From the IMG/VR virus record IMGVR_UViG_3300013104_000019, positions 1 to 23,473 of that record: a stretch of DNA of 23,473 bases. The stretch is one strand, 5' to 3'. Positions within the stretch are counted from its first letter, which is position 1, and every line of letters starts with the position of its first letter. The DNA is from a virus. Its lineage: Duplodnaviria > Heunggongvirae > Uroviricota > Caudoviricetes. A program made the translations under genes and the position numbers. Shown in pieces: positions 71-18,243 of this stretch. Under the pieces are notes generated by a model, which had not been told where the DNA came from, ran no database searches, and saw only the letters and a list, made by a program, of their open reading frames with translations.

Positions 71-100
71 GGGAGGGCCGAGTGCCCTCCCTTTTTATTT
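71..100 (+). terminator. Intrinsic (rho-independent) terminator
   Basis: Perfect 8-bp stem GGGAGGGC/GCCCTCCC with a CGAGT loop, followed by TTTTTATTT. Confidence 0.85.
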
Positions 101-114
101 GTTTAGGGGCACCT

Positions 115-915
115 ATGTCATTGCTTAACGGGACACCTAAAGAGGTTGTGTTGTCGCTGGTTGCTCAGCATAACACGCTTCCTGTTCCTCTCACCGAGGA
201 GAACCTGTATTTCGGAGCAGCACGATTTGATACCGACGGCGTAACCTCCATACTACCTGTCACGGCTATGCTGGGCGGGGAGTATGTTGGTTATCAGAAT
301 TTCAAGTACAAGCGGATCAACCTGTCCCAGATTTTTGACGTCGCACCGATCATCTCGGATGTCGGTGGGCCGTCGCTGTACTCGATGTTGCCGGCTGTGA
401 ATAAAGTACTCGGGATGAATTTCACCGAGGACGACATTCTCGATACCGATATCGTCCCAATCAACGCGGGCGAGCAAACGAACATCAACATGGTGGCCAA
501 GTCGAGTTCGGCGGGCTACTCAGGTCAGTTCTTCTTCCGATTCATTCGGCTGCGCATCACCTTCACGAATGCAGTCAAAAGCACCGCACTTCAAACGCTG
601 GTGTATCCGGGCCATCCGGACGTCACGAAGACGAACCTGTCGATGATGATGTGGGATTTTGATTTCAGCCCCGATGTGGTCGCTGGTACGTTGGCACTGC
701 GAGGCAGTACGTGGGCGAATCAATCGGCGGTGGCGACCTTGATGCATGAGTTCGGTATCACCGACTGGCCCGCTCCGGTGGTCAACGGAGTGACCGATTA
801 CGCGACCAAGGATTATCCGGGCGCGAACACGGCATTCCAGCGCGTCATTGTGCAGAAAACCGTGAGTGGAAGTACGTACGCGGGAGACGCGCTCTTCCAC
901 TACAACCCATCGTAA
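115..915 (+). CDS. Virion structural/tail-fibre paralog, adaptor + HYN head (266 aa)
   Basis: ATG at 115 after AGGGG; the track start at 82 lies inside the terminator. Motifs YKRINL, LGMNFTEDDI, hinge STALQTLVYP, DFDFS and C-terminal LFHYNPS. Confidence 0.75.
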   Translation: MSLLNGTPKEVVLSLVAQHNTLPVPLTEENLYFGAARFDTDGVTSILPVTAMLGGEYVGYQNFKYKRINLSQIFDVAPIISDVGGPSLYSMLPAVNKVLGMNFTEDDILDTDIVPINAGEQTNINMVAKSSSAGYSGQFFFRFIRLRITFTNAVKSTALQTLVYPGHPDVTKTNLSMMMWDFDFSPDVVAGTLALRGSTWANQSAVATLMHEFGITDWPAPVVNGVTDYATKDYPGANTAFQRVIVQKTVSGSTYAGDALFHYNPS

Positions 916-924
916 GGATTTGAA

Positions 925-1788
925 ATGGCGCTTTTTCCCGATCCGTTGACCAGTATTCTGGCAGCCATCTCTGCGCAGAATCCGGGAGTCAGTCTGATTG
1001 CGTCGCAGTACACCTTCGGCAACCCGACTCCCTACACCGATCCGAATGGACTGACCAACACGTCCATGTCGATCACCCCCAATACGCCGGAGTCACCCTA
1101 CACTGGTACGGTGACCATCACGTATTTCCGCTGGCAGCTGCAAGACCTGCTCAATCAGCTGCCGTTGCCGTTGAAGTTTAACGGCCTGAACACTGCGCTT
1201 GCCATGGCGCAGAAGATGAACACCTACTTCGGTACGAACTTCACCGCAAGCGACATCGTCGATGGCCCGGTGACAGTGGCTGGAGATGGCAGCGGCACGC
1301 TCACGCTGACCGCACAAGCCAACTCGCTGGGTTGGGTGGGCACCGTCAATCTGCCGTTTGTGCTGGGTAACTTCGATCTCGGTACGGTCATCACGACGAC
1401 CGCTTTGCCGGGACTCATGTATCCGGAACGCGACGAGACGAAGCCGTTTGCAGAAGCGTACTCGTACTGGCGAGACTTCAGCCCGCAAGAGACGCTGCTG
1501 GTCAACCATACGACGGCCGATACGGATCTGACCGACATCGCTACTGCGCTCACGCAGAACGCAGGCAATTCGCAAGTCGTGTGGACAACCACGGGTCAGA
1601 CGCGTTATTCGCTTGCAGGCGCGACGATCACCTACAACGGCACCACTGCCGCGTATCCGACCAATAGCGACGGCTCAGCGCGCGTCAATACGTCGTATTC
1701 GAACGTGATGACGGTGCTGCTTGATCCGGTGCAGAACATCGGCTACACGGGTACGCTCTTCCTGCACTACAACGTGCCGGTGTTTTAA
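925..1788 (+). CDS. Virion structural/tail-fibre paralog, adaptor + HYN head (287 aa)
   Basis: Motifs FGNP, YFRWQL, FGTNFTASDIVD, NSLGWVG, hinge LGTVITTTALPGLMYP, DFS and LFLHYN. Thr/Gly/Asn-rich. Confidence 0.8.
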   Translation: MALFPDPLTSILAAISAQNPGVSLIASQYTFGNPTPYTDPNGLTNTSMSITPNTPESPYTGTVTITYFRWQLQDLLNQLPLPLKFNGLNTALAMAQKMNTYFGTNFTASDIVDGPVTVAGDGSGTLTLTAQANSLGWVGTVNLPFVLGNFDLGTVITTTALPGLMYPERDETKPFAEAYSYWRDFSPQETLLVNHTTADTDLTDIATALTQNAGNSQVVWTTTGQTRYSLAGATITYNGTTAAYPTNSDGSARVNTSYSNVMTVLLDPVQNIGYTGTLFLHYNVPVF

Positions 1789-1802
1789 TTAAGGAGTGAA
1801 TG

Positions 1803-2639
1803 ATGGCAAACGTCTTTACTCCGTCCGAGCAGAGGCTGACTGATCTGCTCAACATCACGAATTTGCCACCGAAGCTGTTCGACAACACGCGTCTGACGTA
1901 CGGTACGCCAGAAGCGGTGACGGGACAATCAGGTTACGACACGCAAGTGTTGGCCACTGCTATTCCCGGCATGGGGTATTACGGTGAGCAGATGGTCTAC
2001 TACTCGCGCATTCAGCTGAGTGTGCTGTCAGGTCAGGTCAATCTGTTCGACACCGACCCGTTCACGTTGGACAAAATCGTCTCGATGCTCAATGGTCAAT
2101 TCGACACGTTCTTGAGCACATCGGATCTGCAACCGATGACCATTCCACCGCTTTCGGCTGGTCAGTTCGAGACGATTACGCTGGTGGCAGCCTCGACTTC
2201 GATTGGCTGGCAAGGTCAAGTCGACATCGTGATCACGTATGGCAAGCCGCAATTGCCTGCGGTGATTGGCAGTCGTTCTCTGCGTGTGCTGAAATGGCCG
2301 GATTACCCGTATCGCAACGGGATCGAGTTCATGTGGAACATCGATTTCACCTCGTTCCGGGATGCGCTTAAGCTCAAGCAGTACGCGCCGGGCACATGGT
2401 TCACGTACTGGGGATTTACCGATTACGAAGCGATTGCAGATGTCTGCCATCGACTCGGTGTGCCGTGGTTCCCGGCTCCTCAGTGGAATCAGCAAGTCGC
2501 CGATTATGCAACGTCGGCTATCGCTGGTGCCAATACCGCATTCGATCGCGTGGTGGTGATGGGTCCCATCCAAGGTGGCTTGTTTAACAAGTACGATGGG
2601 TACATGTATTTCCACTACAACAACTTTGACAAGGCTTGA
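1803..2639 (+). CDS. Virion structural/tail-fibre paralog, adaptor + HYN head (278 aa)
   Basis: AGGAG RBS at 1792-1796 spaced best to ATG 1803. Motifs YSRIQL, SIGWQG, DFT and YFHYN. Head closely resembles that of 115..915. Confidence 0.8.
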   Translation: MANVFTPSEQRLTDLLNITNLPPKLFDNTRLTYGTPEAVTGQSGYDTQVLATAIPGMGYYGEQMVYYSRIQLSVLSGQVNLFDTDPFTLDKIVSMLNGQFDTFLSTSDLQPMTIPPLSAGQFETITLVAASTSIGWQGQVDIVITYGKPQLPAVIGSRSLRVLKWPDYPYRNGIEFMWNIDFTSFRDALKLKQYAPGTWFTYWGFTDYEAIADVCHRLGVPWFPAPQWNQQVADYATSAIAGANTAFDRVVVMGPIQGGLFNKYDGYMYFHYNNFDKA

Positions 2640-2641
2640 AA

Positions 2642-3622
2642 ATGGGACTCTACACCAAGACATCTCAGCAGATGTTGTTTGACCTGCTCAATGCGAGCAA
2701 CCCGTCGATGCCGTTTCCGGTCTCGTCATCGAACGTCAAGTTCGGCACGGTATCGACTGTCACGCCTTCGGGCGGAGCCATTCAGGACACAGCGGTCAAG
2801 GTGATCGCACTGCCGGGCAGCCCGTACGTCGGCAATCAGGCACTGACGTATCGTCGCCTGAACGCGACGGTGCTGTTCCGTTCGGTACCGCTGCGTATCG
2901 ACCTGTATTCATCGGCCAACACTAGCACGTCGCCGTACAAGATGAGCCAGCTGCTGCCGTACATCAACGCGAAGTACGGCCTGAATCTGCAAGCGTCCGA
3001 CATCGTCGATGTGAACTTCCCGGCGGGCAACACGAACGCCAACGCTGCGTATGGCGTTGCGACTGGCACGCGCAACGCAGTCGCAACGCTTACGTTCACG
3101 ACTGCAAACTACGCATGGCTGGGCAACATCAACGTATGCTGGGTGCAAGCACCGCAAGATCTGTCTACGCTGCTTGCAACGTCGTCGCTGGAAACGGCAC
3201 TGACCTATCCGGGTCAACGCGACGTGGTGAACAACACGGTGTACGTGCCCAACCTCGACGTGTACTACCAAGACTTCACCGATCAGTTCACCACGCTGTG
3301 GGGTACGCCGCTTGCGTCCACCGTTCCGGGTTATAACGGCGCGGCAATTGCGACCAGCACCAACAGCATCACAGGCATCCTCAATGCCATCAATGCCCTC
3401 TCGGGCAAGACCTATACGGTCGGCCAAGGCACACCGGCTGGCAGTCAAGCGATGGATTTGACGGGTGCTGTGATGACGAAGGTAGACCTGACTCAAGCGG
3501 CCAACCAAACCCTGTATCCGGAATCGGATTACAGGTACTACAACAGCATGCTGTACATCAAGCTGACGGCTGGAACCAACACGTGGGGCGCAGGCGACAT
3601 GATGCTCCACTACAACGCTTAA
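2642..3622 (+). CDS. Virion structural/tail-fibre paralog, adaptor + HYN head (326 aa)
   Basis: ATG at 2642. Motifs LFDLLNASN, FGTV, YRRLN, INAKYGLNL..SDIVD, hinge SSLETALTYP and C-terminal MLHYNA. Confidence 0.8.
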   Translation: MGLYTKTSQQMLFDLLNASNPSMPFPVSSSNVKFGTVSTVTPSGGAIQDTAVKVIALPGSPYVGNQALTYRRLNATVLFRSVPLRIDLYSSANTSTSPYKMSQLLPYINAKYGLNLQASDIVDVNFPAGNTNANAAYGVATGTRNAVATLTFTTANYAWLGNINVCWVQAPQDLSTLLATSSLETALTYPGQRDVVNNTVYVPNLDVYYQDFTDQFTTLWGTPLASTVPGYNGAAIATSTNSITGILNAINALSGKTYTVGQGTPAGSQAMDLTGAVMTKVDLTQAANQTLYPESDYRYYNSMLYIKLTAGTNTWGAGDMMLHYNA

Positions 3623-3632
3623 AGGGTGAATC

Positions 3633-4538
3633 ATGAGTCGATTTCAATGGCCTTCGCTCACAGCTTTGCTGGACGCCATCAACACCGCGAACACTACCGT
3701 GCTGGCTTCCTCGGATGTGTCGTTCTCGAACCCGAAGGTGATCACTGGCGGCACATGGCAGGGTATTGCGAGCGATCGCAATACGGCGATTCAGGTGACC
3801 GGTAACGGTGTCACGTACAAGGGTAACAAGGTTATCCAGTACAACCGTAAGGACATCTCGCAGCTGCTGAATCTGCCAAGCTTCAAGATGGCGGTGTACA
3901 ACATCAACACCGTCTGGGACCTCATCCCGTACTTTGCGTACTGGACGGGGATCAAATTCGTGCAGGGCGACCTCATCAACGACCCGGTGACGGGGTTGAC
4001 GAACAACGCCGGGCAGATCACGGTGCGTGCTGACCCCAACTCGCTGGGTTGGATCGGACAGGTAACGATGACGGTCACGCAGGGCGGTATCGGCCTTGAC
4101 ACGGCCGTGCAGACCGCTGCGCTCACGGGTCTCAACTACCCGGTCTCCGATGCTTCGGCTCCGCCTGCTTCGGCCACGTACGGTCCGGTGTATCTGTACC
4201 CGTACGACTTCTCGGCCAACACCAGCACATTCCTCAGCTGGACTCCGGGCGTGCTCACGCAAGCCCAAGCCGATACGCTTGTCGCAGCCCTCAAGGCAGT
4301 CGACATCGGATCGGGCGCAGCGCTGTGGAACGACGTCGCGTCGGGCAACTCAGGCTACACGGCGTGGAACTTGACGGGTGCAACGATCGTCTCGAACGGT
4401 CTGAACAACGCCAACACCATGCCGACCAACCCGAGCTACAAGTATGCGATGGTCCTCCAACTGCGTTCGGATGTGACGGTTCCGAGCGGTCTGTTGTACA
4501 TTCAGTACAACGATCCGTTCAACCCGAACAACTTCTAA
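3633..4538 (+). CDS. Virion structural/tail-fibre paralog, adaptor + QYN head (301 aa)
   Basis: Motifs LLDAINTAN, RNTAI, YNRKDI, NSLGWIG, hinge LDTAVQTAALTGLNYP, YDFS and LYIQYN. Confidence 0.8.
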   Translation: MSRFQWPSLTALLDAINTANTTVLASSDVSFSNPKVITGGTWQGIASDRNTAIQVTGNGVTYKGNKVIQYNRKDISQLLNLPSFKMAVYNINTVWDLIPYFAYWTGIKFVQGDLINDPVTGLTNNAGQITVRADPNSLGWIGQVTMTVTQGGIGLDTAVQTAALTGLNYPVSDASAPPASATYGPVYLYPYDFSANTSTFLSWTPGVLTQAQADTLVAALKAVDIGSGAALWNDVASGNSGYTAWNLTGATIVSNGLNNANTMPTNPSYKYAMVLQLRSDVTVPSGLLYIQYNDPFNPNNF

Positions 4539-4547
4539 GCGCCATGT

Positions 4548-4574
4548 CGCTCTGGAGGCAACCCCTCCAGAGCG
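4548..4574 (+). other. Intergenic RNA hairpin without a U-tract
   Basis: Perfect 11-bp stem CGCTCTGGAGG/CCTCCAGAGCG between two co-oriented genes, followed by CAAAAC rather than a T run. Confidence 0.6.
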
Positions 4575-4590
4575 CAAAACGAGGTGTTGA

Positions 4591-5472
4591 ATGTTTCCAT
4601 ACAAAGCTACACAGTACGACACCTTCATGGCGCTGGTGCAGGCATCCAATCCTGGGTTGGACATTGCACCGCTGACTTCTGACCAACTGCGTGCGCTGGT
4701 TCCGACAACGATCACAGCGGATGCTTTTGGGCGGGACACATCCGTGCGCCTGATGGTGCGGCCGAATAACAGCAAGTATTTCGGTACGCAGACGGTTACG
4801 TATCGCCGGATCAATCTGGCGAACTATTTCCGGAACATGGTGTTGACGCTTGACGATTACGTCGCAAGCGGTAACCTGCTGGCCGCGCAATTTGTATCGT
4901 CCTTCAACGCGAAGTACGGCACTGCGCTTGTCACGACTGATTTCGCAGCAACAAGTTTTGTATCGGGCTCACTTACGACAGTGCCGATGCTGGGGGCCTC
5001 GATCTGTTACGAAGGTTCGTTTCAGGTTACGTGGACCAAGGGTAAGCAGCAGATCGCTTCAGCGGTGAGCAATCCGGTTCTCACGGGACGATTGTATCCG
5101 GGCGGTAACACCATGCCGCCTAATAAGCCAGTAGCTGATTTCCTGACGTATAACTTGGATTGTTCATCGATCAAAGCTGCGTTGGGTGGTCTGTCCTCTG
5201 GCGGTACGATTACCCCGACCAACTGGAATACCGCGAACAGCATCTACGCGACGATTCTGGCTTTCTTGCAGCGGGCTCGTCCGGATCTGAATTTGAGCGG
5301 TGCTGATTCAGCCACCACGGGTGGCTTAGGGAATCTGGTGGCTACCCGCTACACGATCCCCTCGGCAGCGGTGCAAGGCGCTAACAGTGCCAAGTACACG
5401 ACGCTGGTGACGATCCAGTCGGTGTCAGGGTCGTGGTTCAAAGGGATGTTCTATCTTCACTACAACGCTTAA
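4591..5472 (+). CDS. Virion structural/tail-fibre paralog, adaptor + HYN head (293 aa)
   Basis: GAGGT RBS. Motifs RDTSV, YRRINL, FNAKYGTAL, hinge NPVLTGRLYP and C-terminal FYLHYNA. Confidence 0.8.
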   Translation: MFPYKATQYDTFMALVQASNPGLDIAPLTSDQLRALVPTTITADAFGRDTSVRLMVRPNNSKYFGTQTVTYRRINLANYFRNMVLTLDDYVASGNLLAAQFVSSFNAKYGTALVTTDFAATSFVSGSLTTVPMLGASICYEGSFQVTWTKGKQQIASAVSNPVLTGRLYPGGNTMPPNKPVADFLTYNLDCSSIKAALGGLSSGGTITPTNWNTANSIYATILAFLQRARPDLNLSGADSATTGGLGNLVATRYTIPSAAVQGANSAKYTTLVTIQSVSGSWFKGMFYLHYNA

Positions 5473-5484
5473 CGGGAGGGCGTC

Positions 5485-5991
5485 ATGAGTTTGTATCAAG
5501 CATCGCAAGACGACCTTTCGTTGATGCTTTCAGTAGCTGTTGGTGCGACTGTCAACAGTGCGGACTATACCGTCCTTGGCGTGCGTCCGACTACGACGGC
5601 TGAGCAAAGCGGAGTGGCGGGAGGCAAGAACAGCAAGGCGCGTGTGTCGATGAAATCGAGTTCCACGTACCGGGGCTATGTCGATGTGTATTACGATCGA
5701 CTGGACTTGGGTGCGTTGACGAACTTCTCACCCATCAAAACGGTGGCATCAGCAGGTACGGATATCTCGGCACTGCTCACGCAGATTCGCGATATGTACG
5801 GCATCAACTTCACGATGGCGGATCTTGCAGATACACAGACGCAAGATGACGGCTCGGGAACAGGTGCCTCGACTTTACTGCTGCAAGCTTTGTCGACCTC
5901 CATCGGCTGGATCAACAGCGTCACCATCAAGTTCGCCCCGCTGCCTGACATCAGTACGGCGTTCAACTCGCCGGTCATGCCGGGCTTCTAA
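5485..5991 (+). CDS. Adaptor-only paralog (168 aa)
   Basis: GGGAGG RBS. Motifs YDRLDL, YGINFT..DL and SIGW. Ends at the hinge (ISTAFNSPVMPGF*). Confidence 0.8.
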   Translation: MSLYQASQDDLSLMLSVAVGATVNSADYTVLGVRPTTTAEQSGVAGGKNSKARVSMKSSSTYRGYVDVYYDRLDLGALTNFSPIKTVASAGTDISALLTQIRDMYGINFTMADLADTQTQDDGSGTGASTLLLQALSTSIGWINSVTIKFAPLPDISTAFNSPVMPGF

Positions 5992-6005
5992 ACGAAGGGT
6001 AGAAA

Positions 6006-6374
6006 ATGAGCGATCAAACTTTCTGGGCAAATTACTTGTTCTTTTGCGATTTCAGCGCAGACAAGGACTCGCTCGTCGATTTGCCGACGGGCGTGGTGGA
6101 CGAACATGCTGCTACCATCTTGGCTGCAACCCTTTCCATGCATGATACCGGTGAGGGTCGTGCGCTCTGGACGGATCAGCAAAATCCGGAGTGGGGGTTG
6201 GCTGGTGCGGAGATCATCCACAACGGACCGAACGAAACGGGCTTTGCCAGCAACGGCTCGTTCGACCACGTGCTGATGCTCAAATTCCCTGAAACGCAAG
6301 TGTATCCGAAGGGCATCATCGCGGTTCAGTACAACGCCGGCACCAGCACGGCTCCGGTGACACCGACGGCATAA
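6006..6374 (+). CDS. Stand-alone head domain (122 aa), homologous to the C-terminal half of 3633..4538
   Basis: YLFFCDFSA...G.GRALW...W.LAGA.I..NG...QYN aligns by eye with YLYPYDFSA...GSGAALW...WNLTGATIVSNG...QYN. Has its own purine-rich RBS. Confidence 0.8.
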   Translation: MSDQTFWANYLFFCDFSADKDSLVDLPTGVVDEHAATILAATLSMHDTGEGRALWTDQQNPEWGLAGAEIIHNGPNETGFASNGSFDHVLMLKFPETQVYPKGIIAVQYNAGTSTAPVTPTA

Positions 6375-6383
6375 GGCGGTTTT

Positions 6384-6421
6384 CATTCTGAGGATTCTTC
6401 CTCAGAGGAATCCTTGGAATG
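6384..6421 (+). promoter_or_regulatory. 17-bp RNA hairpin leading fibre block 1
   Basis: CATTCTGAGGATTCTTC-ctca-GAGGAATCCTTGGAATG, fully paired with 3 G-U pairs. Homologous to 10605..10642. Confidence 0.7.
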
Positions 6422-6448
6422 TAGCTGTCTTTTTTAAGAGAGAAGATC

Positions 6449-8161
6449 ATGGCATTGAAAGCAGCTTTTAACTGGGATCACTTGGCTGGCGTCAATCTGA
6501 TTCCTGGAGCTACCAGTGGGTACGGGACCTACCAATTAGCAGCATGGCTGGACCTCTACGGTAATGGTTACACGCCATACGCCTACATTCCGTCAGTGGG
6601 CAATTCACTCATCAGCATTGATTCAAACGGGTGGTTTTCGTTATCGACACCCGCTTCATCGACTCCTTATCTTGGTGCTTTGGAAATTCCATGGGGAATG
6701 TTCCTCGACAACACCAAGACAGAAAGCTGGATTGGTTTTCGGTTCAAGGCTACAAGCAATCTGTTCACTGGCGCAGGCAATTTTGTCTGGTTGGCGTCAG
6801 TCAACGGCGCTGGACCCACGACACTGATCACGCTTGCCTCACTGGCAACATGGGGTTGTGTGCTCGGTAAAGAGTACTACTTTGAACTGCGATTCTGGAA
6901 GAACGGAGCGAACTATCAGGTTGATGTCTGGATGGACGGGGTTTTGAAATCTACCGGTTCTACCTCCATCGGTTCAGTATCCGGCATGCCGTCCAATTTC
7001 ATCTGGTTCGGCTCTGCGACTCAAACTACCGCCAGTGTCGTTACGACTTTCCTCTTCCGGGATTTCTATTTCTTGGATGCAGACGGTTTGGGGAATTGGG
7101 ATAGCACTCGTGTGGGCCCAATTCGTACGACTCCGTTGCCAATCTCATCGGTATCCGCACCGAATTATAGCGCTGGTACAGCCGCCCTGACAGGAGGCGC
7201 GGCTTTGTCGAGCGCGCAGTCCAAGTTCGGCGGTTCCTCATTGCTCGTGACGGGCGCTAACGACTACGCACTGGTTCAAGATTCGGTTGCGCTCAAGTTC
7301 ACAGGCGACTTCACAATCGAATACTTCGCGTATCTCAACGCCTCAAGTAACGGCATGGTCTACTCGAAGGGGCCGACGACGAGTCGAATTCAGGTTTATC
7401 AGGGCAATCTGGTTGTGTATAGCGATCAGTCTGTGTCTGGTACGCCGCTCGTTTCATCAGCGGCTGGTAAGATCATTCTGAACCAGATGCAGCATCACGC
7501 GATTGTGAAACAAGGCAATGTCTGGACGATTTATATCGACGGGCAGTCGGTTGGAACTGTGACTTCGGCGGGTCAGACGTTGGGAAACAACACGAACTCA
7601 GCTTATCTCGGCAACTATGCGGCGTTGGGTTTCCCGCTGAATGGTTATCTGGATGAATTCCGGATTAGCAACGTTGCACGCTACACGGGGAATTTCACAC
7701 CGCCTGCGAGTGCCTTTACACCGGATGCGAATACGGTGATGTTGTTGCATTGTGATCAGGCACTGGCTGGATTCATGCGCGATGAAGCCCCATCCCCGCA
7801 GAGTGTGCTTCAAACCCTGATGGCGAACGGTGTTCCAGCAACGACCCCGAACATCACGAACGCTGCGACGCTTGATCCGCTGAAGATTTCGTTCAGTACG
7901 AGTGGAATCGTAGCAGGTTCCAAGATCCTCGCAATGAAGTACCAACATGCGGTAATGAATCAACAATCGGGTAACGGCGTGATCAATCCCTCGCTGGTGG
8001 AAGGGCAAAGCACACTTAGCCTGACTCAAGAAACATTCACAGATGCCACCATGCGGTACAGCCGTTCGATTGGCTATGTCAAGACAGCACCTGACGGATC
8101 TGCACTGACGCTTTCCAATATCGCTGCTACGCAGCTGGTGTTGACCCCGACGTCGGTATAA
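6449..8161 (+). CDS. Putative receptor-binding/tail protein: ConA-like N-domain + inserted LamG-like cassette + C-domain (570 aa)
   Basis: N-domain motifs WDH, WIGFRFK, EYYFE, VWMDGV and FRDFYFLD. LamG motifs [28 protein letters not shown] at about 7169-7783. C-terminal APDGSALT. Confidence 0.75.
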
Positions 8162-8171
8162 GGAGTGAATG

Positions 8172-9260
8172 ATGACAATGCGTTTGGTAATGCCGTTTGA
8201 TCACGTACCGGCTGCGTACGACGGCGGTGTCAATGTATCAACTTACACTGATTATCCGGCGTTTCAGTTCGGTACAAACGGCGGTGCTTCGCGAGGCGTA
8301 CTGGCAGACTCCGGGTACAACTGGCTGTCGGTGAAGATTGCCGGGTTAAACAGCTACGGTTATGCTGCTTTTTTGGCACTGCCTGTGAGTTCGTTGTTTG
8401 ATTTGACGAAAGCAAGGAGTTACGTCGGCTTTCGGTATAAGGTCACTACTTATAATACGACTGCTGGACTGTCACTTTTTTGCTGGGAAGCTGCGACCAC
8501 ACCTCCCGGCAACGGTCCGACAGGAACGACCAATGCGCTGATCAAGACCACGGAATTTACCTTCACGCTGGGCCAGGATTACTACATCGAAATCATGTTC
8601 GATTGGGTGAACTTGACACGCACTGTGTGGGTGGATGGCGTAAAGATCGTGAATGCCGTAGCACTAGGTTTCACTCCGCTGTCGACGCACCTGGTGGAAT
8701 GGACCATTCAATCAGGTAGCGCTGCTGTCAACCCTGTGATCCAAGTGAAGGATTTCTACGCACTGGATGATGCAGGCGACGGTGCAGCTGACAGCCAGCG
8801 ACAAGGTCCGATGGTCTACTTGCCGCTTACCATGAATGACGCTTCGGGCAACGGTTGGACCAGTTCGGATAGCACGACGCTTTTGGCCGACATCAACAAT
8901 GCGATTACGGGTTCGGGGAATTTGGCTGCCCCGTATGCGCAGAGTCCGACTGATGGTACGCCACTCGATATGCATTTCAATGCGTCGGGCTTGGATCCGA
9001 ATGTCGGGATTAAGGGTCTTGTTGTGCTTGGTTCGGCCACTCGTCCCTCGGGTGCTGTAGCGTCGGTGAAAACGGTCGTATCGGATCAAGCCACGCCTGC
9101 GAATACGAAACGATTGGTGGATCAGAATTTTCCAAGTGCAGGCGTCGTTCCTAACCGAACGGTTGGTGTCTTGACGACTGCCTTGGACGGATCGACTTGG
9201 ACACCGACTAAGATCCAGCAGACCAAGATCAGCATGAATGCGATCGTTCCGGGGACTTAA
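8172..9260 (+). CDS. Putative tail protein, same two-domain family without the LamG cassette (about 362 aa)
   Basis: AGGAG RBS; tandem ATGs at 8169, 8172 and 8178. Motifs FDHVP, YVGFRYK, DYYIE, VWVDGV, KDFYALDD and ALDGSTWT. Confidence 0.75.
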   Translation: MTMRLVMPFDHVPAAYDGGVNVSTYTDYPAFQFGTNGGASRGVLADSGYNWLSVKIAGLNSYGYAAFLALPVSSLFDLTKARSYVGFRYKVTTYNTTAGLSLFCWEAATTPPGNGPTGTTNALIKTTEFTFTLGQDYYIEIMFDWVNLTRTVWVDGVKIVNAVALGFTPLSTHLVEWTIQSGSAAVNPVIQVKDFYALDDAGDGAADSQRQGPMVYLPLTMNDASGNGWTSSDSTTLLADINNAITGSGNLAAPYAQSPTDGTPLDMHFNASGLDPNVGIKGLVVLGSATRPSGAVASVKTVVSDQATPANTKRLVDQNFPSAGVVPNRTVGVLTTALDGSTWTPTKIQQTKISMNAIVPGT

Positions 9261-9263
9261 TCA

Positions 9264-10598
9264 ATGGCAACTAATCGCGCAGCGCAGGCGATCCTGATCA
9301 CCAAGGATCAGCCTGCCATTTCAAATCGATCAGCGCAAGCGGTTGTCATCACACAGGACCCGCCTACTGCGCAAATCCGTAACGTACGCGGCTATGCCAT
9401 GTCGGCTATGCCGGCAAAGGCACAGATTCGCAATGTGCGCGGTTACGTGATGTCGACCGCGACCAAACCGCCACCGACTTCCATAACCGGCGCAGCTGCT
9501 CTGCTGTGGTTGCTGAACCAAAACACGAAGGGCGTGACGTTCACTGCTGGTCAGTTGGCGTTTGGTACACCGCAGACGTATAACGATCCAACGGGCCGGT
9601 CGAACACGCAGGTATTGGTCACGGCGAATCAGAGCAGTGGTTATAGCGGCAGCATGACTGCCTACTATAATCGCCGAACACTACTCTCTGTGTTCGCCAG
9701 CACGAGCTGGTTGCTTGGGACGATCTCCAGCGCAACAACCGTTCGTGCGTTGATTCCGCAAATCAACACCGCGTACGGGGTTGGTCTGGATGTGACGGAT
9801 GTGGTGGATGGACCAGTGGCAGCAGGCGCAACCAGTCTTGTGCTGACCGTTGCTTCGGGCAGTTACATGTTCAAGGCAGGCGATGCGCTTCAGTTGCCGT
9901 CTTACACGCTTGCCTCTAAAACGCCGAATACCGCGCTTACTGGTTTTGATGATGCGGCAGGCAATGGTCCAAAGACTGGTACGCTTGCGTTGTTCCATTT
10001 CGATGGTTCAACCGGCTCGCCTTCTTTGGTCGACACCTCTGGCAAGAACATCGCCAGTACGTCGGGGACAGTCGCTACGTCCAGCACCTCGAAGTTCGGT
10101 ACGCAAGCCGTCAGCATGGCATCCACAAACGCAGCCATTGTGCTGCCAGACGCATCGTATCTGCGCTTCGCGGGACAGGACGCCACCATCGAGGGTTGGT
10201 TCAATCCGGCCAACACCACACAGAACGGTGTGCTTTTCGGTAAGGAAGCGTCTTCTGGTAGCGTTTATGGTGACTTGCAGTACTACCAGGGCAGCATGCG
10301 GCTTTGGCTGGACTCGACCAACTTCGCCTTTAGCGTAGTATCGTCGCTGGTAGCAAACGTGTACTCACACGTGGCGTTGGTTTCGTATAAGGGCGTCTGG
10401 TATCTGTACGAAAACGGCGTGCTGAAGGGACAGGTCACGGGCGGCACTTTCGGTAATAACAGCAACCCGTTCCGTATCGGTAACTACGCTGGTCTGACTG
10501 CACCTTTCACTGGTATCATCGATGAATTCCGGATTTCGAGCTTTGCTCGTTACACCGGACCGTTCACTCCGCCGAGTGGACCTTTCGTTTTGGACTAA
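9264..10598 (+). CDS. Putative fibre scaffold: N-terminal beta-repeats + adaptor module + C-terminal LamG-like domain (444 aa)
   Basis: AQIRNVRGY twice. Adaptor motifs FGTP, RSNTQV, YYNRR and INTAYG..L...DVVD. LamG from LALFHFDG to IDEFRISSFARYTGPFTPP. Confidence 0.75.
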   Translation: MATNRAAQAILITKDQPAISNRSAQAVVITQDPPTAQIRNVRGYAMSAMPAKAQIRNVRGYVMSTATKPPPTSITGAAALLWLLNQNTKGVTFTAGQLAFGTPQTYNDPTGRSNTQVLVTANQSSGYSGSMTAYYNRRTLLSVFASTSWLLGTISSATTVRALIPQINTAYGVGLDVTDVVDGPVAAGATSLVLTVASGSYMFKAGDALQLPSYTLASKTPNTALTGFDDAAGNGPKTGTLALFHFDGSTGSPSLVDTSGKNIASTSGTVATSSTSKFGTQAVSMASTNAAIVLPDASYLRFAGQDATIEGWFNPANTTQNGVLFGKEASSGSVYGDLQYYQGSMRLWLDSTNFAFSVVSSLVANVYSHVALVSYKGVWYLYENGVLKGQVTGGTFGNNSNPFRIGNYAGLTAPFTGIIDEFRISSFARYTGPFTPPSGPFVLD

Positions 10599-10604
10599 GG
10601 AGCA

Positions 10605-10642
10605 GATTCTGGACGATCTTCTTCGGAGGGTCGTCTGGTATC
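10605..10642 (+). promoter_or_regulatory. 17-bp RNA hairpin with C(UUCG)G loop leading fibre block 2
   Basis: GATTCTGGACGATCTTC-ttcg-GAGGGTCGTCTGGTATC, 16 of 17 positions paired when G-U is counted. No U-tract. Confidence 0.7.
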
Positions 10643-10670
10643 TCCTTCGCCTGACACATTTGAGGGCATC

Positions 10671-11750
10671 ATGGCAATTCACGATTTGTGGACATACGAC
10701 CACGCTCCGCAAGGTACAACGGATCTGTCGACAGGTTCAGGTGGTCCGGTGTACAGCGAGACTGGTCTTTACAATCAGTACACGGGTAATCCGGGTTACG
10801 CATACAACAACGGCATTACCAATGCCATTCAGGCTACAACCGATGGTTATCTGACCATGAATTCGAACAGTTCTTCGAATCCGGGTCTGGCAGTACAAGC
10901 CAAAGAAGTACAAGACTGGAGTGTGGCTACTCAGTACTGGGTTGGTTTTCGCACGAAGACATCCAAGCAGAATGCATCGAACGCCAACGTCTTCACGATG
11001 TCGGATACGATTGGTCAAACCAATCCGTCGATTCTGGTGCTGGAATCTGACATGACTGCGGCTGGAGCCAATGTCCTGAATCAGGATTACTACGTCGAAG
11101 TCTTTATCGACCGAACCAATCGAGTCTATCAGGTCTGGATCAACGGTGTTCAAGTGAAATCCGGAACCATTGCTGCTGCTTCTGTTGTGAGTGGTGGTAA
11201 CGGCTTTTACTGGTTTGGTCCGTGGAATAGCGGATTGATTGCGAGTGCCTCACGAGCCTTCCGGGATTTCTACTTTCTCGATGTGGATGCCACGACGCCT
11301 GGTCGTCTGGGTTCGATTCGTTCGAACCTTGCTGCACTGTCGGTAGTTTCTGCACCAAACTACACACTTAACGCAGGTTCAAGCGGGGTAAGCGATGCAC
11401 TGGGTGCGTTCAATTACGCATATCCGACGCCGCCGGTGGCTACGCCTAATGAAACCAATGCTGCAACTGACGATGTGTTGACATCGACGTTTAACACGTC
11501 GGTTCCATCCAGTACAAGCATCATTGCGGTGGAATACCGTCACGCGTCGCAGTCGACCAGCGCAGCGAATCTGGGTGTCGCGTTGACCTCTGGAGGTACG
11601 ACGCAAAACAAACCAGCTTACGCTTTTGCCGATACGAATACGATGAAATACGGTCGACGTGCTGTGTTGGCAACAACCGCAGTGGACGGATCTGCCTGGA
11701 CACCAGCAAAAGTGAACGCAACGCAATTGTTGCTCACTCCGACTAACTAA
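10671..11750 (+). CDS. Putative tail protein, two-domain family without the LamG cassette (359 aa)
   Basis: GAGG RBS. Motifs [35 protein letters not shown] and VDGSAWTPAK. Confidence 0.75.
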   Translation: MAIHDLWTYDHAPQGTTDLSTGSGGPVYSETGLYNQYTGNPGYAYNNGITNAIQATTDGYLTMNSNSSSNPGLAVQAKEVQDWSVATQYWVGFRTKTSKQNASNANVFTMSDTIGQTNPSILVLESDMTAAGANVLNQDYYVEVFIDRTNRVYQVWINGVQVKSGTIAAASVVSGGNGFYWFGPWNSGLIASASRAFRDFYFLDVDATTPGRLGSIRSNLAALSVVSAPNYTLNAGSSGVSDALGAFNYAYPTPPVATPNETNAATDDVLTSTFNTSVPSSTSIIAVEYRHASQSTSAANLGVALTSGGTTQNKPAYAFADTNTMKYGRRAVLATTAVDGSAWTPAKVNATQLLLTPTN

Positions 11751-11766
11751 GCTTTTCGAGGTAATC

Positions 11767-13434
11767 ATGACGATCCGTGACATGTGGACGTATGACCATG
11801 CGCCGCAAGGTAGCGCGGACTTGTCTGCTGGAACGTCCCTGTCAGCATACTCGGAGAATAGCAATTACAACCTCTACACGGGGTTGCCGGGTATGCTGTA
11901 TAAGAACACCAGCGGCACGGGTGCCGTGACCACTGACGGCTTTTTGACGCTTACCACAGCAAGTGGTTTGAATCCGGCTTTGTTCGTTCGCGCCAACGAA
12001 GTCCAGAACTGGGGCACCCCGACCAAGTACTGGATTGGTTTTCGTACCAAGACCACGTCACAAAACGGCGCAGCGTGTAACATCTTTGCCCTCACCAGCG
12101 ACGTCACCAGCATGGCGAACTATGCTGCATTGTTGCAAGAAACGGACATGACGGCAGCCGGTGCAGCGACGCTGAACACCGAGTATTACGTGGAGATTTT
12201 CATTGACCGCGCGAACTTGGTGTATCAAGTCTGGGTCAATGGCGTACAGGTGAAGAACGGTACGTTGAGTGCCGCTTCACTGCCTGCCAATGGCGTGGGT
12301 TATTACCAGTGGGGGGCGTACAACTCGCTCTCTGGGGTGACCAACGGCGCGACGCGTTGTTTTCGAGATTTCTATTTCTTGGACGTGGACGCAACGGACA
12401 CAGGGCGACTGGGTTCCATCCGATCTTCGCTTCAGCCTCTTGCAACAATTAGTGCGCCGAATTATTCAGCTTATCATGCATCGGTGGTTGGGACAGCAGG
12501 ACTGTCAACTGCGCAGGCGAAGTTTGGAAGTCGTTCTTTCGTGGTTGGAGCGACCGCTGGCTCATGCGCACAAATCGCAGATGTTTCGACTTTGCGGCTG
12601 ACTGGGGATTTTACGATCGAGTTCTTCACGTACAACCCCACTCCAAACAGTTCGACGATGTACCTTAACAAAGGTACGAACGCCTATGTCTTTAACAACG
12701 CAGGATCAATCTGTGCCTCGTTTGATCCTGCGAATTCACTGGTCGTCAATGCTGCTGGCAAGCTCAAAGCCAATCAGTGGCAACACATTGCGCTGACGAA
12801 GCAAGGAACAACAGTAACGATGTGGGTCGATGGGGTGAGTGTAGCTACTGCCACATCGAGCGGTACGTTTGGTAATGTGTCGAGTCCGCTGCAAGTCGGG
12901 ACATGGAACAATGCTACTGATGCACTGATCGGGTTTCTGGACGAACTGCGCATTAGTAACGTATGTCGCTACACGTCAGCTTTCACACCGACGGCCACTC
13001 CGTTTGTCACGGATGCTAACACGGTGCTGCTCATGCACTTCGAGAGCACCAGCAATGGTTTGTTTGATTCGGGTCTGTCTGCCTTGCAGTCAATTCAGAC
13101 ACCTTATCCGTCTTCGGGCTCGCCCAATACACCTGTATTGCAAGACGCCCCGACGAAAGATCCGATGACTGTTGGTTTCAACACCAGTTACTTGACCCAA
13201 CCAAATATTTTGGCAGTGGATTATCGACTGGGGTTGCAAACGCCATATCCGTCGTCGTCTGTTGCGGCTCAACTGCAACAAGGAGCCAACAATGTACCAG
13301 CGTCATTACCGATTAACGACAACAGTATGAATCTCGGCCGGCGCGTAGCGTTACTGCGAAGCGCACCCGATAGCGGGAATTGGACGCCGGCGAAGATTGC
13401 CGCGACTTCATTAGTCGTGACTCCCGCTTCTTAA
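11767..13434 (+). CDS. Putative tail protein, closest paralog of 10671..11750 plus the LamG cassette (555 aa)
   Basis: GAGGT RBS. Motifs WTYDHAPQG, YWIGFRTK and FRDFYFLD. Cassette at about 12466-13068 (AKFGSRS, GDFTIE, FLDELRISNVCRYT, DANTVLLMHF). Confidence 0.75.
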   Translation: MTIRDMWTYDHAPQGSADLSAGTSLSAYSENSNYNLYTGLPGMLYKNTSGTGAVTTDGFLTLTTASGLNPALFVRANEVQNWGTPTKYWIGFRTKTTSQNGAACNIFALTSDVTSMANYAALLQETDMTAAGAATLNTEYYVEIFIDRANLVYQVWVNGVQVKNGTLSAASLPANGVGYYQWGAYNSLSGVTNGATRCFRDFYFLDVDATDTGRLGSIRSSLQPLATISAPNYSAYHASVVGTAGLSTAQAKFGSRSFVVGATAGSCAQIADVSTLRLTGDFTIEFFTYNPTPNSSTMYLNKGTNAYVFNNAGSICASFDPANSLVVNAAGKLKANQWQHIALTKQGTTVTMWVDGVSVATATSSGTFGNVSSPLQVGTWNNATDALIGFLDELRISNVCRYTSAFTPTATPFVTDANTVLLMHFESTSNGLFDSGLSALQSIQTPYPSSGSPNTPVLQDAPTKDPMTVGFNTSYLTQPNILAVDYRLGLQTPYPSSSVAAQLQQGANNVPASLPINDNSMNLGRRVALLRSAPDSGNWTPAKIAATSLVVTPAS

Positions 13435-13454
13435 CTTTTTTGGATGTGGAAATC

Positions 13455-15128
13455 ATGTCTAAAGCAAAAATGATGTACGCCTTTGACCACATTCCGACTG
13501 GACAAAGTGGGACAGGAGGTAACGTACCGACGTACGCTGTCGATTACCCGTTTGTGTGGAACGGCGCAACTACAGGTGGTGGTCCGGGTACTGGTGGTAC
13601 TCTGTCGGATACAGGCGGTGTGTGGTTGGCAGCAAATGGTGCGTACGGTTTTTCCGGCAACTTCTACGTGGGTGGATGGCTCATTCCGGTCAATCTGTTC
13701 GATTTGACCAAACCACGCGGTTATTATGGTTTTCGTTTTAAGGCTGCCGGCCCGAACCGCGTGAATCACCCACTAGTCATCATGAACAGCGCCAAAAGCG
13801 CCTATGGCTCGGTGATGGTGAACATCAACGATTACAACTGGATCACCAACCAGGAGTACTACGTTGAAGTACTGATTGATCGCCAGAACAATCTGCGCAC
13901 CGTGTGGGTCGACGGAGTGATGGTGATCAACGCCCAAGTGTTCAGCCAGACTATTCTCTCGACGGATTATCTGTCGATGGGTCAGATTTTGGGAACAGGC
14001 GGCTCAAGCGGGCAGTCTTATCAGTTCAAAGACATCTATTTGATGGACGATCCGGGTGACGGCAGTGTATCGCGACTCGGTCCGATCAAAGCGTATCCGA
14101 TTTCGATTGCCTCAAGCAGCGGCAACGGCTGGGGTTCGAACATCGCAACCTTCAGTGGTACAGCTGGGGTTTCATCGCAAGCTAAGTTTGGCGCATCAGC
14201 GTTGACGATGGGAGCAACCGCATCGTCGGCTTGTTCGATTCCGGATAAGTCTGGTGTGAAATCCACCAGCACGGCAGACTTTACGATTGAAACGTGGTGT
14301 TTGTCGAATAACAATGCTCAAGTCGGGATACTGTTTGGTAAAGATGGTAGCGCGGCTCCGTTTGCGCACCTCACATACAACGCAGGGACTTGGCAGATGT
14401 GGGCTGACGGCAGCAGTGCGGTGATCAGTGCAGCCTCGGGTGTGGCTGTCAACACCTGGATGCATATTGCTCTGGTGAAATACCAGAACACGTGGTATCT
14501 CTACCAGAACGGTGTATTGCTGGGTTCGGTAGCAGGCAGTACGTTCGGCAATAACTCGAACAACTTCGTGATCGGGAATTACGGCGGACTGCTCAATCAA
14601 TGGCAAGGTTCCATTGACGAATTCCGCATCAGTACCAATGCGCGCTACACTGGCGCATTTACGCCGCCGTCCGCTCCGTTCACCACGGATGCGAATACGG
14701 CTTTGTTGATGCACTTCGACGCATTCAATAACGGTTATACGCCAGATGCATCGATCACGCTTCAAAGCGTTCTGAATACGGCTCTTAACGCCACCACACC
14801 GACGATGCCGAACCTCTCGGCGGCAGTGGATGGTACACCTTTGGTTTCTGCACTTCAGTCGACAGCAGACCAAGGAGCAAGTATTCAAGGGATTTTGTTG
14901 GTTGCTTCGGGCCAACGTGCTCCAGCATCAGGCACGACGCTTCGCACCACGATTGCTGATCAAGCTCAACCGCCCAACCAGCAAACCCTGAACGCGCTTC
15001 AATTCCCAGCGGGTGCTTTTACTTACGGCAAGGTATTGGGTTTCTTGGCCAATGCACCAGATGGCTCGCAACTGACGACAGCAAAAGTGGCGCAACTTAG
15101 CTTGTCGTCTGTCGCGACAGCAACCTAG
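13455..15128 (+). CDS. Putative tail protein, paralog of 8172..9260 plus the LamG cassette (557 aa)
   Basis: Start MSKAKMMYAFDHIP at 13455; the track start at 13380 overlaps the previous gene. Motifs YYGFRFK, EYYVE and KDIYLMDD. Cassette at about 14133-14747. Confidence 0.75.
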   Translation: MSKAKMMYAFDHIPTGQSGTGGNVPTYAVDYPFVWNGATTGGGPGTGGTLSDTGGVWLAANGAYGFSGNFYVGGWLIPVNLFDLTKPRGYYGFRFKAAGPNRVNHPLVIMNSAKSAYGSVMVNINDYNWITNQEYYVEVLIDRQNNLRTVWVDGVMVINAQVFSQTILSTDYLSMGQILGTGGSSGQSYQFKDIYLMDDPGDGSVSRLGPIKAYPISIASSSGNGWGSNIATFSGTAGVSSQAKFGASALTMGATASSACSIPDKSGVKSTSTADFTIETWCLSNNNAQVGILFGKDGSAAPFAHLTYNAGTWQMWADGSSAVISAASGVAVNTWMHIALVKYQNTWYLYQNGVLLGSVAGSTFGNNSNNFVIGNYGGLLNQWQGSIDEFRISTNARYTGAFTPPSAPFTTDANTALLMHFDAFNNGYTPDASITLQSVLNTALNATTPTMPNLSAAVDGTPLVSALQSTADQGASIQGILLVASGQRAPASGTTLRTTIADQAQPPNQQTLNALQFPAGAFTYGKVLGFLANAPDGSQLTTAKVAQLSLSSVATAT

Positions 15129-15142
15129 CGCGGAGTGTTGAG

Positions 15143-16465
15143 ATGACAACAACCTTTCGTAAAACAAGTGCAATTGTCTGGACGAAAGACCCTTCGCCGA
15201 TTAGCACGCGTGCTGCTTCGGCAGTGGCGTTTGCCAGTGATTTAAATTTGGTGGTGCGTAACGTTCAAGGTTACGCATTTGAGTCCCCGCAAGCGAATGT
15301 GGCTTTGCGCAACATCCAAGGTTATGCGTTTGAATCGGTCAAGCAGTCGTTGAATCTCTCTGTTACGGGAAATCAAGCGCTGTACGCGCTGATCAACAAC
15401 AACAGCTTGTACCAGAGCTGGAGTGCAAGTAACAGTACGCTGGGTGCACCAGTCGTTGATAACAGCGTGACGAACTGTAACACCAGAGTCAATTTGGCAG
15501 CCAAGACGGCAAGCGGGTACAGCGGCAACATCAATCTGTACTACAACCGGCGTCCTATTTCTGATGCGATTAACACCAGCGTCAGTTTGGGAACTATCGC
15601 CAGTAACACGGACGTCTGGACGCTGTTGCCGACCATCAACAGTAAGTACGGGACTAACCTCACGACAAGCGATGTGGTCAACGCATCGGTGAGTGCAGGT
15701 GCGACCACGGTGATGTTGACGGTGGCAAGCGGTAGTTACATGTTCATTCCGGGTTCGGTGGTGGCTGCTGGTTTGGTGAAGGATCTGGCTTCGGTTACAC
15801 CGAGTAACCTGCTGTTTGGTTTCGACAATGCAGCGGGTAATGGTCCGAAGGCAACGAAAACGGTGATGTTGCTGCACTTCGAAGGCGGCAGCATTGTTGA
15901 CACTTCAGGTAACTTCACTCCGACGATTGTGAGTACTGCTGCGCTGACGACGCAGCAAGCGAAGTTTGGTACTCAGTGCCTGAGTTTGCCAGCCTCTGGA
16001 TCTGCTCTGAAGTTCGCAGACGATCCGCGACTGCGCTTTACGAGCGACTGCACGCTTGAAGCCTGGGTGATGTCGACTAATAATGCTCAGAACGGCGTGT
16101 TGTTTGGTAAAGATCCGTCCTCTGGCAGCCCGCCTACGGAACTCCAGTATTTCAATGGTTCTTGGCGCGTGTGGCTTGATTCTGCCACTGTGAACATCTC
16201 AGCAACTTCCGGCGTTGCAGTCAACACCTGGATGCACATCGCGTTGGTGCGCTACAGTGGTGTCTGGTATCTGTATCAAAACGGTGTGCTGCTTGGTCAG
16301 TTCACCGGTGGCACCTTCGGCAATAACACCAACCCCTTCTACGTCGGTAACTGGGGTGGCTTGGCGAATGAATTCCAGACTTACGTGGATGAAGTTCGGA
16401 TCAGTAATGTGGCGCGCTACACGGCTCCGTTCACTCCTCCGAGCACTGCGTTTGCATTGGATTGA
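15143..16465 (+). CDS. Putative fibre scaffold, paralog of 9264..10598 (440 aa)
   Basis: GGAG RBS. Repeat RN(V/I)QGYAFES twice. Motifs YYNRR, INSKYGTNL, VASGSYMF, GFDNAAGNGPK and a C-terminal LamG domain. Confidence 0.75.
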   Translation: MTTTFRKTSAIVWTKDPSPISTRAASAVAFASDLNLVVRNVQGYAFESPQANVALRNIQGYAFESVKQSLNLSVTGNQALYALINNNSLYQSWSASNSTLGAPVVDNSVTNCNTRVNLAAKTASGYSGNINLYYNRRPISDAINTSVSLGTIASNTDVWTLLPTINSKYGTNLTTSDVVNASVSAGATTVMLTVASGSYMFIPGSVVAAGLVKDLASVTPSNLLFGFDNAAGNGPKATKTVMLLHFEGGSIVDTSGNFTPTIVSTAALTTQQAKFGTQCLSLPASGSALKFADDPRLRFTSDCTLEAWVMSTNNAQNGVLFGKDPSSGSPPTELQYFNGSWRVWLDSATVNISATSGVAVNTWMHIALVRYSGVWYLYQNGVLLGQFTGGTFGNNTNPFYVGNWGGLANEFQTYVDEVRISNVARYTAPFTPPSTAFALD

Positions 16466-16482: not shown

Positions 16483-16510
16483 AAAAAAAGTTGTCATCCT
16501 ATGCGGGATG
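16483..16510 (+). promoter_or_regulatory. Possible phage late promoter (A-tract, then TATG within a short hairpin)
   Basis: AAAAAAAGTTGTCATCCTATGCGGGATG upstream of 16555. TATG is the reported phiKZ late-promoter core. The motif is short, so support is weak. Confidence 0.3.
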
Positions 16511-17097: not shown

Positions 17098-17127
17098 TCC
17101 AGAGCGCTTCGGCGCAATGGTTTAGGG

Positions 17128-17158
17128 AACAGCCGGGGAGCAATCCTCGGCTGTTTTT
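17128..17158 (+). terminator. Intrinsic terminator with GCAA tetraloop
   Basis: AACAGCCGGGGA-gcaa-TCCTCGGCTGTT followed by further Ts. A small GCGC-ttcg-GCGC hairpin lies at 17104-17115. Confidence 0.8.
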
Positions 17159-17218
17159 ATGCCGTCACCGCAAACGCCGCAATTTTATGCCCTTCCCTAT
17201 CCTGCTTTTGGACTTGAC

Positions 17219-18202: not shown

Positions 18203-18243
18203 ATGCCCGAAAAGTGAGAATTTACGTAGAGCATCGATAATGT

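Follow-up and report, generated by a model that had tools for sequence, protein, structure and literature searches.

A conserved sense-strand RNA hairpin ahead of the fibre gene blocks of a jumbo phage related to Burkholderia phage FLC9

PhiKZ-type giant phages rely on polymerases of their own for transcription, and many of them separate transcription from translation. In a stretch of 23,473 nucleotides from one virus record (IMGVR_UViG_3300013104_000019, positions 1 to 23,473; hereafter, the window), which represents the first 23.5 kb of a 159-kb record judged to be 53% complete, two similar hairpins stand on the + strand at 6384-6421 and 10605-10642, each of them ahead of a block of fibre genes. 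We regard the phage as a chimallivirus-like (phiKZ-type) jumbo phage and a relative of Burkholderia phage FLC9, the closest one in culture (322 kb; proteins of the region are 30-57% identical), which has been grouped with the Chimalliviridae in a review (PMC12388082). The locus raises the question of whether the two hairpins are copies of a single RNA element maintained by selection and, if so, what kind of signal they carry. We report here that they are copies of one conserved, selected, sense-strand RNA element and that this element is a previously undescribed motif. The general kind, an intercistronic hairpin of phage mRNA, is already known; hairpins between phage genes have been described for a long time and no new principle is involved. 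The sequence constraints on this element are unusually clear.

The hairpins of the window and their relatives

The core of hairpin 1 (6384-6421, + strand) consists of the foot AUUCUG/UGGAAU, seven variable pairs and the apex UCUUC/GAGG(A), closed by the loop CUCA, and scored 53.5 bits (E 7e-14) with the covariance model described below. Hairpin 2 (10605-10642, + strand; 54 bits with the same model) has the foot AUUCUG/UGGUAU, again seven variable pairs, the apex UCUUC/GAGG and the loop UUCG. All 17 pairs form at site 1, three of them as G-U, and 16 of 17 form at site 2, where pair 4 is a U-U mismatch; pairs 6, 7 and 15 are G-U at both sites. Exactly two occurrences of the motif are present in the whole 159-kb record. 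The distance from the upstream stop to the start of the hairpin is 9 nt at site 1 and 6 nt at site 2, and the next ATG follows the end of the hairpin after 27 nt and 28 nt, respectively. A sequence-only reading of the window had given letters and coordinates for both hairpins that matched exactly on re-reading. It had also described middle pairs and a closing pair that differ between the copies and yet stay paired, shared G-U positions, and a placement less than 10 nt past a stop and about 28 nt ahead of an ATG, all of which the measurements bear out. Its figure of a 17-bp stem is right for the core pairing and too short for the total, because outer helices make both hairpins longer.

When the whole intergenic regions were folded using RNAfold, the + strand gave -32.0 kcal/mol (z -4.2) at site 1 and -33.2 kcal/mol (z -4.7) at site 2, and none of 200 shuffles was as stable as either fold. 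The reverse strand of the two regions was unremarkable (z -1.4 at site 1 and -0.3 at site 2), and the fold is therefore a property of the sense strand, on which all flanking genes are encoded. The complete hairpin-1 structure predicted by RNAfold spans 6373-6431 (+ strand) and comprises an outer helix of 9 bp (6373-6381 with 6423-6431), a small internal loop and the core, amounting to about 26 bp. The complete hairpin-2 structure spans 10599-10648 (+ strand), with GGAG at 10599-10602 paired to CUUC at 10645-10648 and A10604 paired to U10643 below the core, or about 21-22 bp. The outer helices vary in sequence by lineage and jointly pair better than shuffles of the flanks (Fisher p 4e-4; p 0.002 for site 1 alone). 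With the covarying outer helix included, which is separated from the core by an internal loop of 1-4 nt, the duplex totals 21-26 bp.

The comparative evidence comes from related phages. In a relative of 96% identity (G001), site 1 is unchanged and site 2 differs by one U-to-C change, which turns a U-G pair into C-G. Where the window has site 1, FLC9 and five IMG/VR records likewise carry a hairpin; its foot and apex are unchanged, and its middle differs but remains complementary. In the first alignment of eight sequences, 93% of the cells pair and eight pairs are changed on both sides, a result that none of 500 shuffles matched; the signal was lost when the partner was shifted by 1-3 columns.

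A covariance model was trained on these first eight copies and then used as a predictor. Ten whole phage records returned the known sites only, and 405 kb of unrelated LamG loci (80 loci, negative control) returned no match. These 80 loci had been retrieved from metagenomes with the fibre alignment, a search dominated by the widespread LamG domain that yielded no relatives. In a newly recovered relative (G008), the single match (E 1.8e-10) lies directly after the orthologous stop and shows another compensating middle. A protein search with the 122-aa family encoded upstream of hairpin 1 gave 36 relatives. Nine of these were looked up; eight provided new loci (162 kb), and the other (P0012) provided gene calls only. 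The model made nine matches in these 162 kb, all on the sense strand and all at the predicted gap after the orthologous stop, one of them being a second copy in L381, a locus with two blocks like the window. Ten further copies were thus found outside the training set of eight (in G008 and the eight new loci). Sequences found with a model lean towards that model; here, each gap offered one candidate, in a place that was predicted from synteny.

Among the 17 distinct copies that were aligned, 94.8% of the cells pair. Covariation is seen at pairs 8-14, where both sides are changed in 44 cells, a count reached by none of 500 shuffles. The foot is invariant in all 17 copies (A-U, U-A, a free position, C-G, U-G and G-U; AUUCUG/UGGNAU), and its tandem U-G/G-U is replaced in none of them, while the apex CUUC/GAGG is kept in 16, L388 being the exception. 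The loop measures 3-5 nt. Placement is equally regular, at 3-21 nt past the stop of a DUF7941-type gene and 25-36 nt ahead of the first cassette gene. FLC9-like phages have in addition a diverged second hairpin, which keeps TGATGTGTATTCTGG (AUUCUGG), has a Watson-Crick foot (UUCUGG/CCAGAA) and no apex, and whose stems covary. The covariance-model check agrees with the earlier proposal of a selected RNA element, in that homologs occur in about 17 related genomes, always in the same place and with strong covariation. The element had also been said to belong to no described family, and cmscan against Rfam indeed gave no match to either hairpin; a scan of 4400-10800 with E up to 5 returned only two chance hits, which lie elsewhere.

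An 11-mer of the 3' arm of hairpin 2, GTCTGGTATCT, occurs at 10395-10405, 10633-10643 and 16262-16272. The copies at 10395 and 16262 fall within genes 9264 and 15143, in the part that encodes LamG, with 0 expected by chance, and base pairing between the one at 10395 and the 5' arm of hairpin 2 is conceivable. The recurrence may reflect a Trp-Tyr codon pair common to the sites, or it may show where the arm came from.

Comparison with the phage's own terminators and promoters

About 25 GC-rich hairpins followed by TTTATGCC are found in the 159-kb record and represent the phage's own terminators. Their canonical form is a GC hairpin, CCYCCCC...GGGRRGG, followed by YTTATKYYGT. In the window, canonical units lie at 17124-17166 and 18177-18207, with the tail (T)TTATGCC(G/C)T, and record-wide they occur on both strands. 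The GC hairpin and tail match the terminator motif of phiKZ (PMC10914365), and the terminator motif here overlaps the TATG late promoter of the phiKZ non-virion polymerase (PMC4666361). Judging by these signals, the phage very likely uses phiKZ-type polymerases and signals.

As intergenic hairpins in a phiKZ-like genome, the fibre hairpins resemble the terminator/late-promoter units of phiKZ (PMC10914365, PMC4666361), from which they differ in being longer and AU/GU-rich, in having no TTATGCC tail, in carrying a fixed 5' motif and in lying inside a transcription unit. The same holds against the roughly 25 terminators of this phage: the fibre hairpins lack the GC stem and the tail, and their stems are longer and lower in G+C, with an AU/GU-rich base. 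They were not called by a simple pattern scan for terminators, and no canonical promoter lies between them and the next genes. A T-run of at least five is present in six of 14 copies and absent from the other eight, two of which do not have even a run of three. The six runs end 11-14 nt ahead of the ATG and begin 8-20 nt past the hairpin; since their distance is fixed to the ATG and variable to the hairpin, they belong to the translation initiation region. The sequence-only reading had seen no adjacent U-tract at either hairpin, which is incorrect for site 1, where T6 (6430-6435) begins 8 nt past the core. The comparative data group this T6 with the ribosome-binding region, and with the Shine-Dalgarno-like AAGAGAG it makes up the translation initiation region (6430-6448, + strand) of the first gene of block 1 (ATG 6449).

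In G001, no canonical unit is found on this strand between -7176 (7.2 kb upstream of the window start) and +17157, and both fibre blocks are therefore expressed by read-through. In FLC9-like phages, each fibre hairpin precedes the last gene of a unit that is closed by a canonical terminator. The T-run spacing, the AU/GU stem base, the missing tail and the lack of a downstream promoter together rule out an ordinary intrinsic terminator, and the fibre hairpins are not of the phage's terminator type.

These observations bear also on a leaky intrinsic terminator or pause (attenuator), which would act on the phage RNA polymerase and lower each successive block. Such a role would suit a hairpin just past a stop in a co-directional operon, and at site 1 the outer helix is directly followed by T6. 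A look-alike in an unrelated 37-kb contig, described below, has an outer helix and then T13, and phiKZ-type terminators need only a short U stretch (PMC10914365). However, the eight copies without a T-run, the runs that keep to the ATG and not to the hairpin, the AU/GU-rich base, the missing tail and the negative pattern scan all count against it, and it would leave the invariant sequence unexplained and the downstream genes without a promoter of their own. We consider an attenuator unlikely.

A start signal was also considered for the fixed 5' motif. ATTCTG(G) would then be a variant, with TCTG for the late TATG, of the signal used by the non-virion RNA polymerase, so that each block would have a weak promoter and its transcript would start with a protective hairpin. 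The 5' arm reads ATTCTGG in every copy, including the diverged second hairpins with their different 3' arm, and is one substitution away from the TTATG of the canonical units; in L381, moreover, the box ahead of the 180-aa gene mentioned below is CATTCTATGCGGGG, close to the start of the L381 hairpin, CATTCTGGGG. In phiKZ, however, transcription requires every position of TATG (PMC4666361). ATTCTGG shows no enrichment in the other intergenic regions of the genome, and on the 3' side the partner of the foot is either conserved or altered so that pairing is kept, which implies that AUUCUG is itself in the transcript. A variant promoter is, on this evidence, very improbable. A TATG box was found among the 17 copies only by chance, in L229/L233 (TGGAATATGC).

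Some further signals were noted near the hairpins and in the relatives. In the FLC9-like phages, the first gene after the fibre hairpin is followed by a GC-rich terminator hairpin of 18-29 bp and CTTATGCC; these long terminator hairpins lie at 23804-23888 and 17386-17484 in FLC9 (L107), at 12144-12231 in L384 and at 12102-12196 in L386. A CTATGCG box at 16499-16505 stands ahead of a conserved 180-aa gene (16555-17097), and TATGCG recurs in L381, L383, L385 and L388; the box resembles a late promoter, with no terminator hairpin ahead of it. On the minus strand at 6365-6374, beside hairpin 1 and overlapping the stop of gene 6006, TTATGCCGTC is an exact terminator-promoter tail. Its other copy in the window is only that of the canonical unit at 17157, and G008 has CTTATGCC at the equivalent of 6365-6374. 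The antisense TTATGCCGTC may mark a late start on that strand, or the C-terminal codons may happen to produce it.

Candidate readers of the element

The reading that we favour, tentatively and with somewhat less than an even chance of being right, is that the hairpin is post-transcriptional punctuation in a late operon of about 24 kb, recognised by an RNase III-type factor specific for double strands; we infer both the reader and the effect on dosage. The sequence-only reading had likewise suggested a role of this sort, as an RNase III-like cleavage site, a protein-binding operator or a stabiliser that would make each block a separately dosed unit. RNA polymerase would read through the element, and the factor, most likely the host RNase III, would recognise the two-turn duplex and the fixed foot on the mRNA. 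By cutting or capping the message at the hairpin, it would leave each fibre cassette as an mRNA segment with a hairpin end, a stability and a translation yield of its own. A factor of this type is in keeping with a duplex of two turns, with its internal loop and with its place between cistrons. The tandem wobble of the foot could be strengthened by single mutations and is nevertheless unchanged in 17 copies, which suggests a reader that senses wobble geometry.

The closest known parallel of this kind is found in phage T7, in which R0.3, R1.1 and others are RNase III sites of polycistronic mRNAs and are thought to leave hairpin-capped segments. The fibre element is like them in standing between genes of a long phage message, in extending over about two helical turns with a small internal loop, in having no terminator tail and in occurring as several copies with a fixed and a variable part; no likeness of sequence is claimed. 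In T7-type sites the duplex is some 20 bp long or longer and often contains an internal loop, and the one measured here is within that range. Unlike the T7 sites, the fibre element is limited to one or two copies per genome and to the fibre locus, and its foot has an invariant tandem G-U and not an internal loop. The host, moreover, is presumably a member of the Burkholderiales, and the phage would transcribe with its own polymerases.

Several points weigh against a nuclease of the RNase III type. This enzyme is usually thought to need little sequence identity, and a foot of 6 bp that never varies would be explained at least equally well by a sequence-specific binding protein. An RNase III domain was found in none of the five phage genomes searched, so that the host enzyme has to be assumed, and if a nucleus-like compartment is built (FLC9 being placed in the Chimalliviridae; PMC12388082), that enzyme would act only after export of the mRNA. 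The FLC9-like second hairpins have exchanged the wobbles for Watson-Crick pairs and lost the apex, and L388 is also without the apex. From this divergence, the reader would be more tolerant than the 17/17 foot suggests, or there would be two sub-types.

The invariance of the foot introduces an alternative, in which the hairpin serves as the operator of an RNA-binding protein, encoded by the phage or the host, that recognises specific sequence. This protein would dock on the foot and apex and tune the translation or stability of the first cassette gene without cutting. An operator fits the sequence invariance better than the RNase III-type reading does, given a foot that is kept in 17 of 17 copies together with its unrepaired tandem U-G/G-U, and an apex kept in 16 of 17. 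The two fixed blocks are seven pairs apart, or about one A-form turn from centre to centre, which by geometry would place them on the same face of the helix; one or two copies per genome at a single locus, with a nearly constant distance to the start codon, also suit an operator. On the other hand, the analysis turned up no candidate protein. The hairpin stops well short of the Shine-Dalgarno sequence and leaves it exposed, and the upstream product, a small protein of the structural family DUF7941, is unlikely to be an RNA binder. Part of the supposed contact surface is, in addition, lacking in the FLC9-type second hairpins and in L388. We hold an operator to be possible, if on balance doubtful. 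A bolder version, in which the foot is the docking site of a dedicated phage factor and a clade-specific riboregulation sets the stoichiometry of alternative receptor-binding cassettes and marks the joints where whole cassettes come and go, appears slightly more doubtful to us; if it were true, the look-alikes described next would point to a wider sharing of the signal or its reader.

Scans of IMG/VR with loose patterns yielded mostly chance matches, G001 being the only real one. A strict pattern over IMG/VR recovered all known members and two unrelated families with 7/7 middle pairs, along with seven chance families with 2-4/7. One of the two look-alikes (L334, 4900-4937) is in a podovirus-like 37-kb contig with a portal gene, 3 nt past a stop and followed by T13. 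The other (L349, 1501-1538, minus strand) is in a 46-kb provirus of Burkholderiales type with its closest relative in Achromobacter and lies 40 nt upstream of a zeta-toxin-family gene. By a rough estimate, about 0.1 look-alikes would be expected by chance. An IMG/VR search for relatives of the G009 contig returned identical copies only. A shared trans-factor was rejected, as BLASTP of the look-alike contigs G009 and G010 against the jumbo phages found only the LamG domain. The hairpins in these two unrelated phages may be true relatives or chance look-alikes.

A number of other classes were also rejected. A CsrA/RsmA site, which presents GGA in a short hairpin's loop, would not fit, since none of the loops (CUCA, UUCG, CCA, UCAC etc.) has a GGA and the stems are of 17 bp. 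A host REP/REPIN-like repeat is contradicted by the one or two copies per phage genome, by the absence of model hits in an Achromobacter genome and by the absence of the pattern from all of 301 Burkholderiales genomes, and a dispersed phage repeat by the mere two copies in the 159-kb record and the lack of ATTCTGG enrichment between genes. Recoding (stop readthrough, -1 frameshift or bypass of the T4 gene-60 type) was dismissed on the grounds that frame offsets of 0, 1 and 2 all occur, that stops are present in the downstream frame (TAG 6422-6424) and that matching in-frame codons are found in only four of ten copies. The target hairpin of a diversity-generating retroelement was dismissed on the 76%-identical ends of genes 9264 and 15143, which have no A-biased mismatch spectrum, and the start-stop mini-ORF (open reading frame) ATG TAG at 6419-6424 is not conserved in relatives.

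The hairpin is a well-supported candidate for post-transcriptional control in a phage of this kind, which has to balance the numerous components of a branched fibre apparatus. Its structure is defined, its invariant foot leads to sharp predictions, and the element is carried by the cultured FLC9. The hairpin also marks the borders of host-range cassettes and so aids the reading and engineering of fibre loci.

Fibre blocks, their gain and loss, and neighbouring genes

Genes from 82 to 16465 are all on the + strand and are tightly packed, with gaps of more than 25 nt only at 4539-4590, 6375-6448 and 10599-10670. The gene upstream of hairpin 1 (6006-6374, + strand; 122 aa; stop TAA 6372-6374) encodes the C-terminal half of DUF7941 (Pfam), and its orthologs precede the hairpin in every relative. 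Fibre block 1 (6449-10598, + strand) encodes a 570-aa LamG protein, a 363-aa paralog and a 444-aa DUF7941+LamG protein (Pfam), and hairpin 2 lies directly 3' of a DUF7941+LamG gene (Pfam). Fibre block 2 (10671-16465, + strand) encodes a 359-aa paralog without LamG, LamG proteins of 555 aa and 565 aa, and a 440-aa DUF7941+LamG protein. The genes that follow the two hairpins form one paralog family with a common N-terminal domain, in which LamG is present in some members and absent from others. The first gene of block 2 (10671-11750) had been taken for a ConA-family gene, a view that has to be given up, as Pfam gives it no LamG/ConA domain and it shares only the N-terminal domain of the fibre paralogs. 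The related view, that the hairpins head the fibre blocks, is supported by the relatives, in which the number of blocks equals the number of hairpins: one of each in G003, G008, L382, L383, L385 and L388, and two of each in the window, G001 and L381. The block that is missing from the former six is block 1.

The single block of G003 is orthologous to block 2 (gene identities of 73%, 51% and 47%). Its hairpin has the middle and the 3' foot of site 2, yet lies 3' of the gene 6006 ortholog. From this arrangement, block 1 and one hairpin behave as an insertion or deletion bounded by hairpins, and the mixed make-up of the G003 hairpin places the breakpoint at or before ATTCTG.

The same data are the ground for reading the hairpin as an evolutionary joint at the DNA level, at which recombination adds, removes or swaps fibre blocks. 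The one extra block and one extra hairpin of the window and L381, relative to the six relatives above, agree with a joint, as does the G003 hairpin. A precedent exists in the PeSL elements of T4-type phages (PMC2839356, PMC4122927), where a conserved hairpin flanks variable genes and bounds gene gain and loss. A PeSL element, however, is made up of an early promoter and a terminator, and hyperplastic regions contain many copies of it, whereas the fibre element has no recognisable promoter and is found in a late structural operon in one or two copies. The identical DNA shared between sites is only about 6+6 bp, a poor substrate for homologous recombination. The G-U pairing, the strand specificity and the compensatory changes, moreover, speak for selection on an RNA fold, and the two arms do not form a palindrome in the DNA. 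A role as a joint could coexist with a regulatory one. As the explanation of the element itself, we regard a joint as quite unlikely.

The two halves of DUF7941 are encoded in the window by separate genes, at 5485-5991 and 6006-6374. The split is kept in FLC9 (gp318/gp317), in G003 and in seven of the eight newly fetched loci and is therefore an old arrangement and not a recent break; in L387, the exception, the N-terminal half appears fused to the preceding gene.

A third intercistronic hairpin, at 4548-4574, has an 11-bp GC stem, the loop CAACC and no U-tract and lies between genes 3633-4538 and 4591-5472. FLC9 has a hairpin with a different stem in the matching gap, and AAACGAGGUGUU downstream is common to both. 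The hairpin at 4548-4574 is probably another conserved non-terminator hairpin of the same operon.

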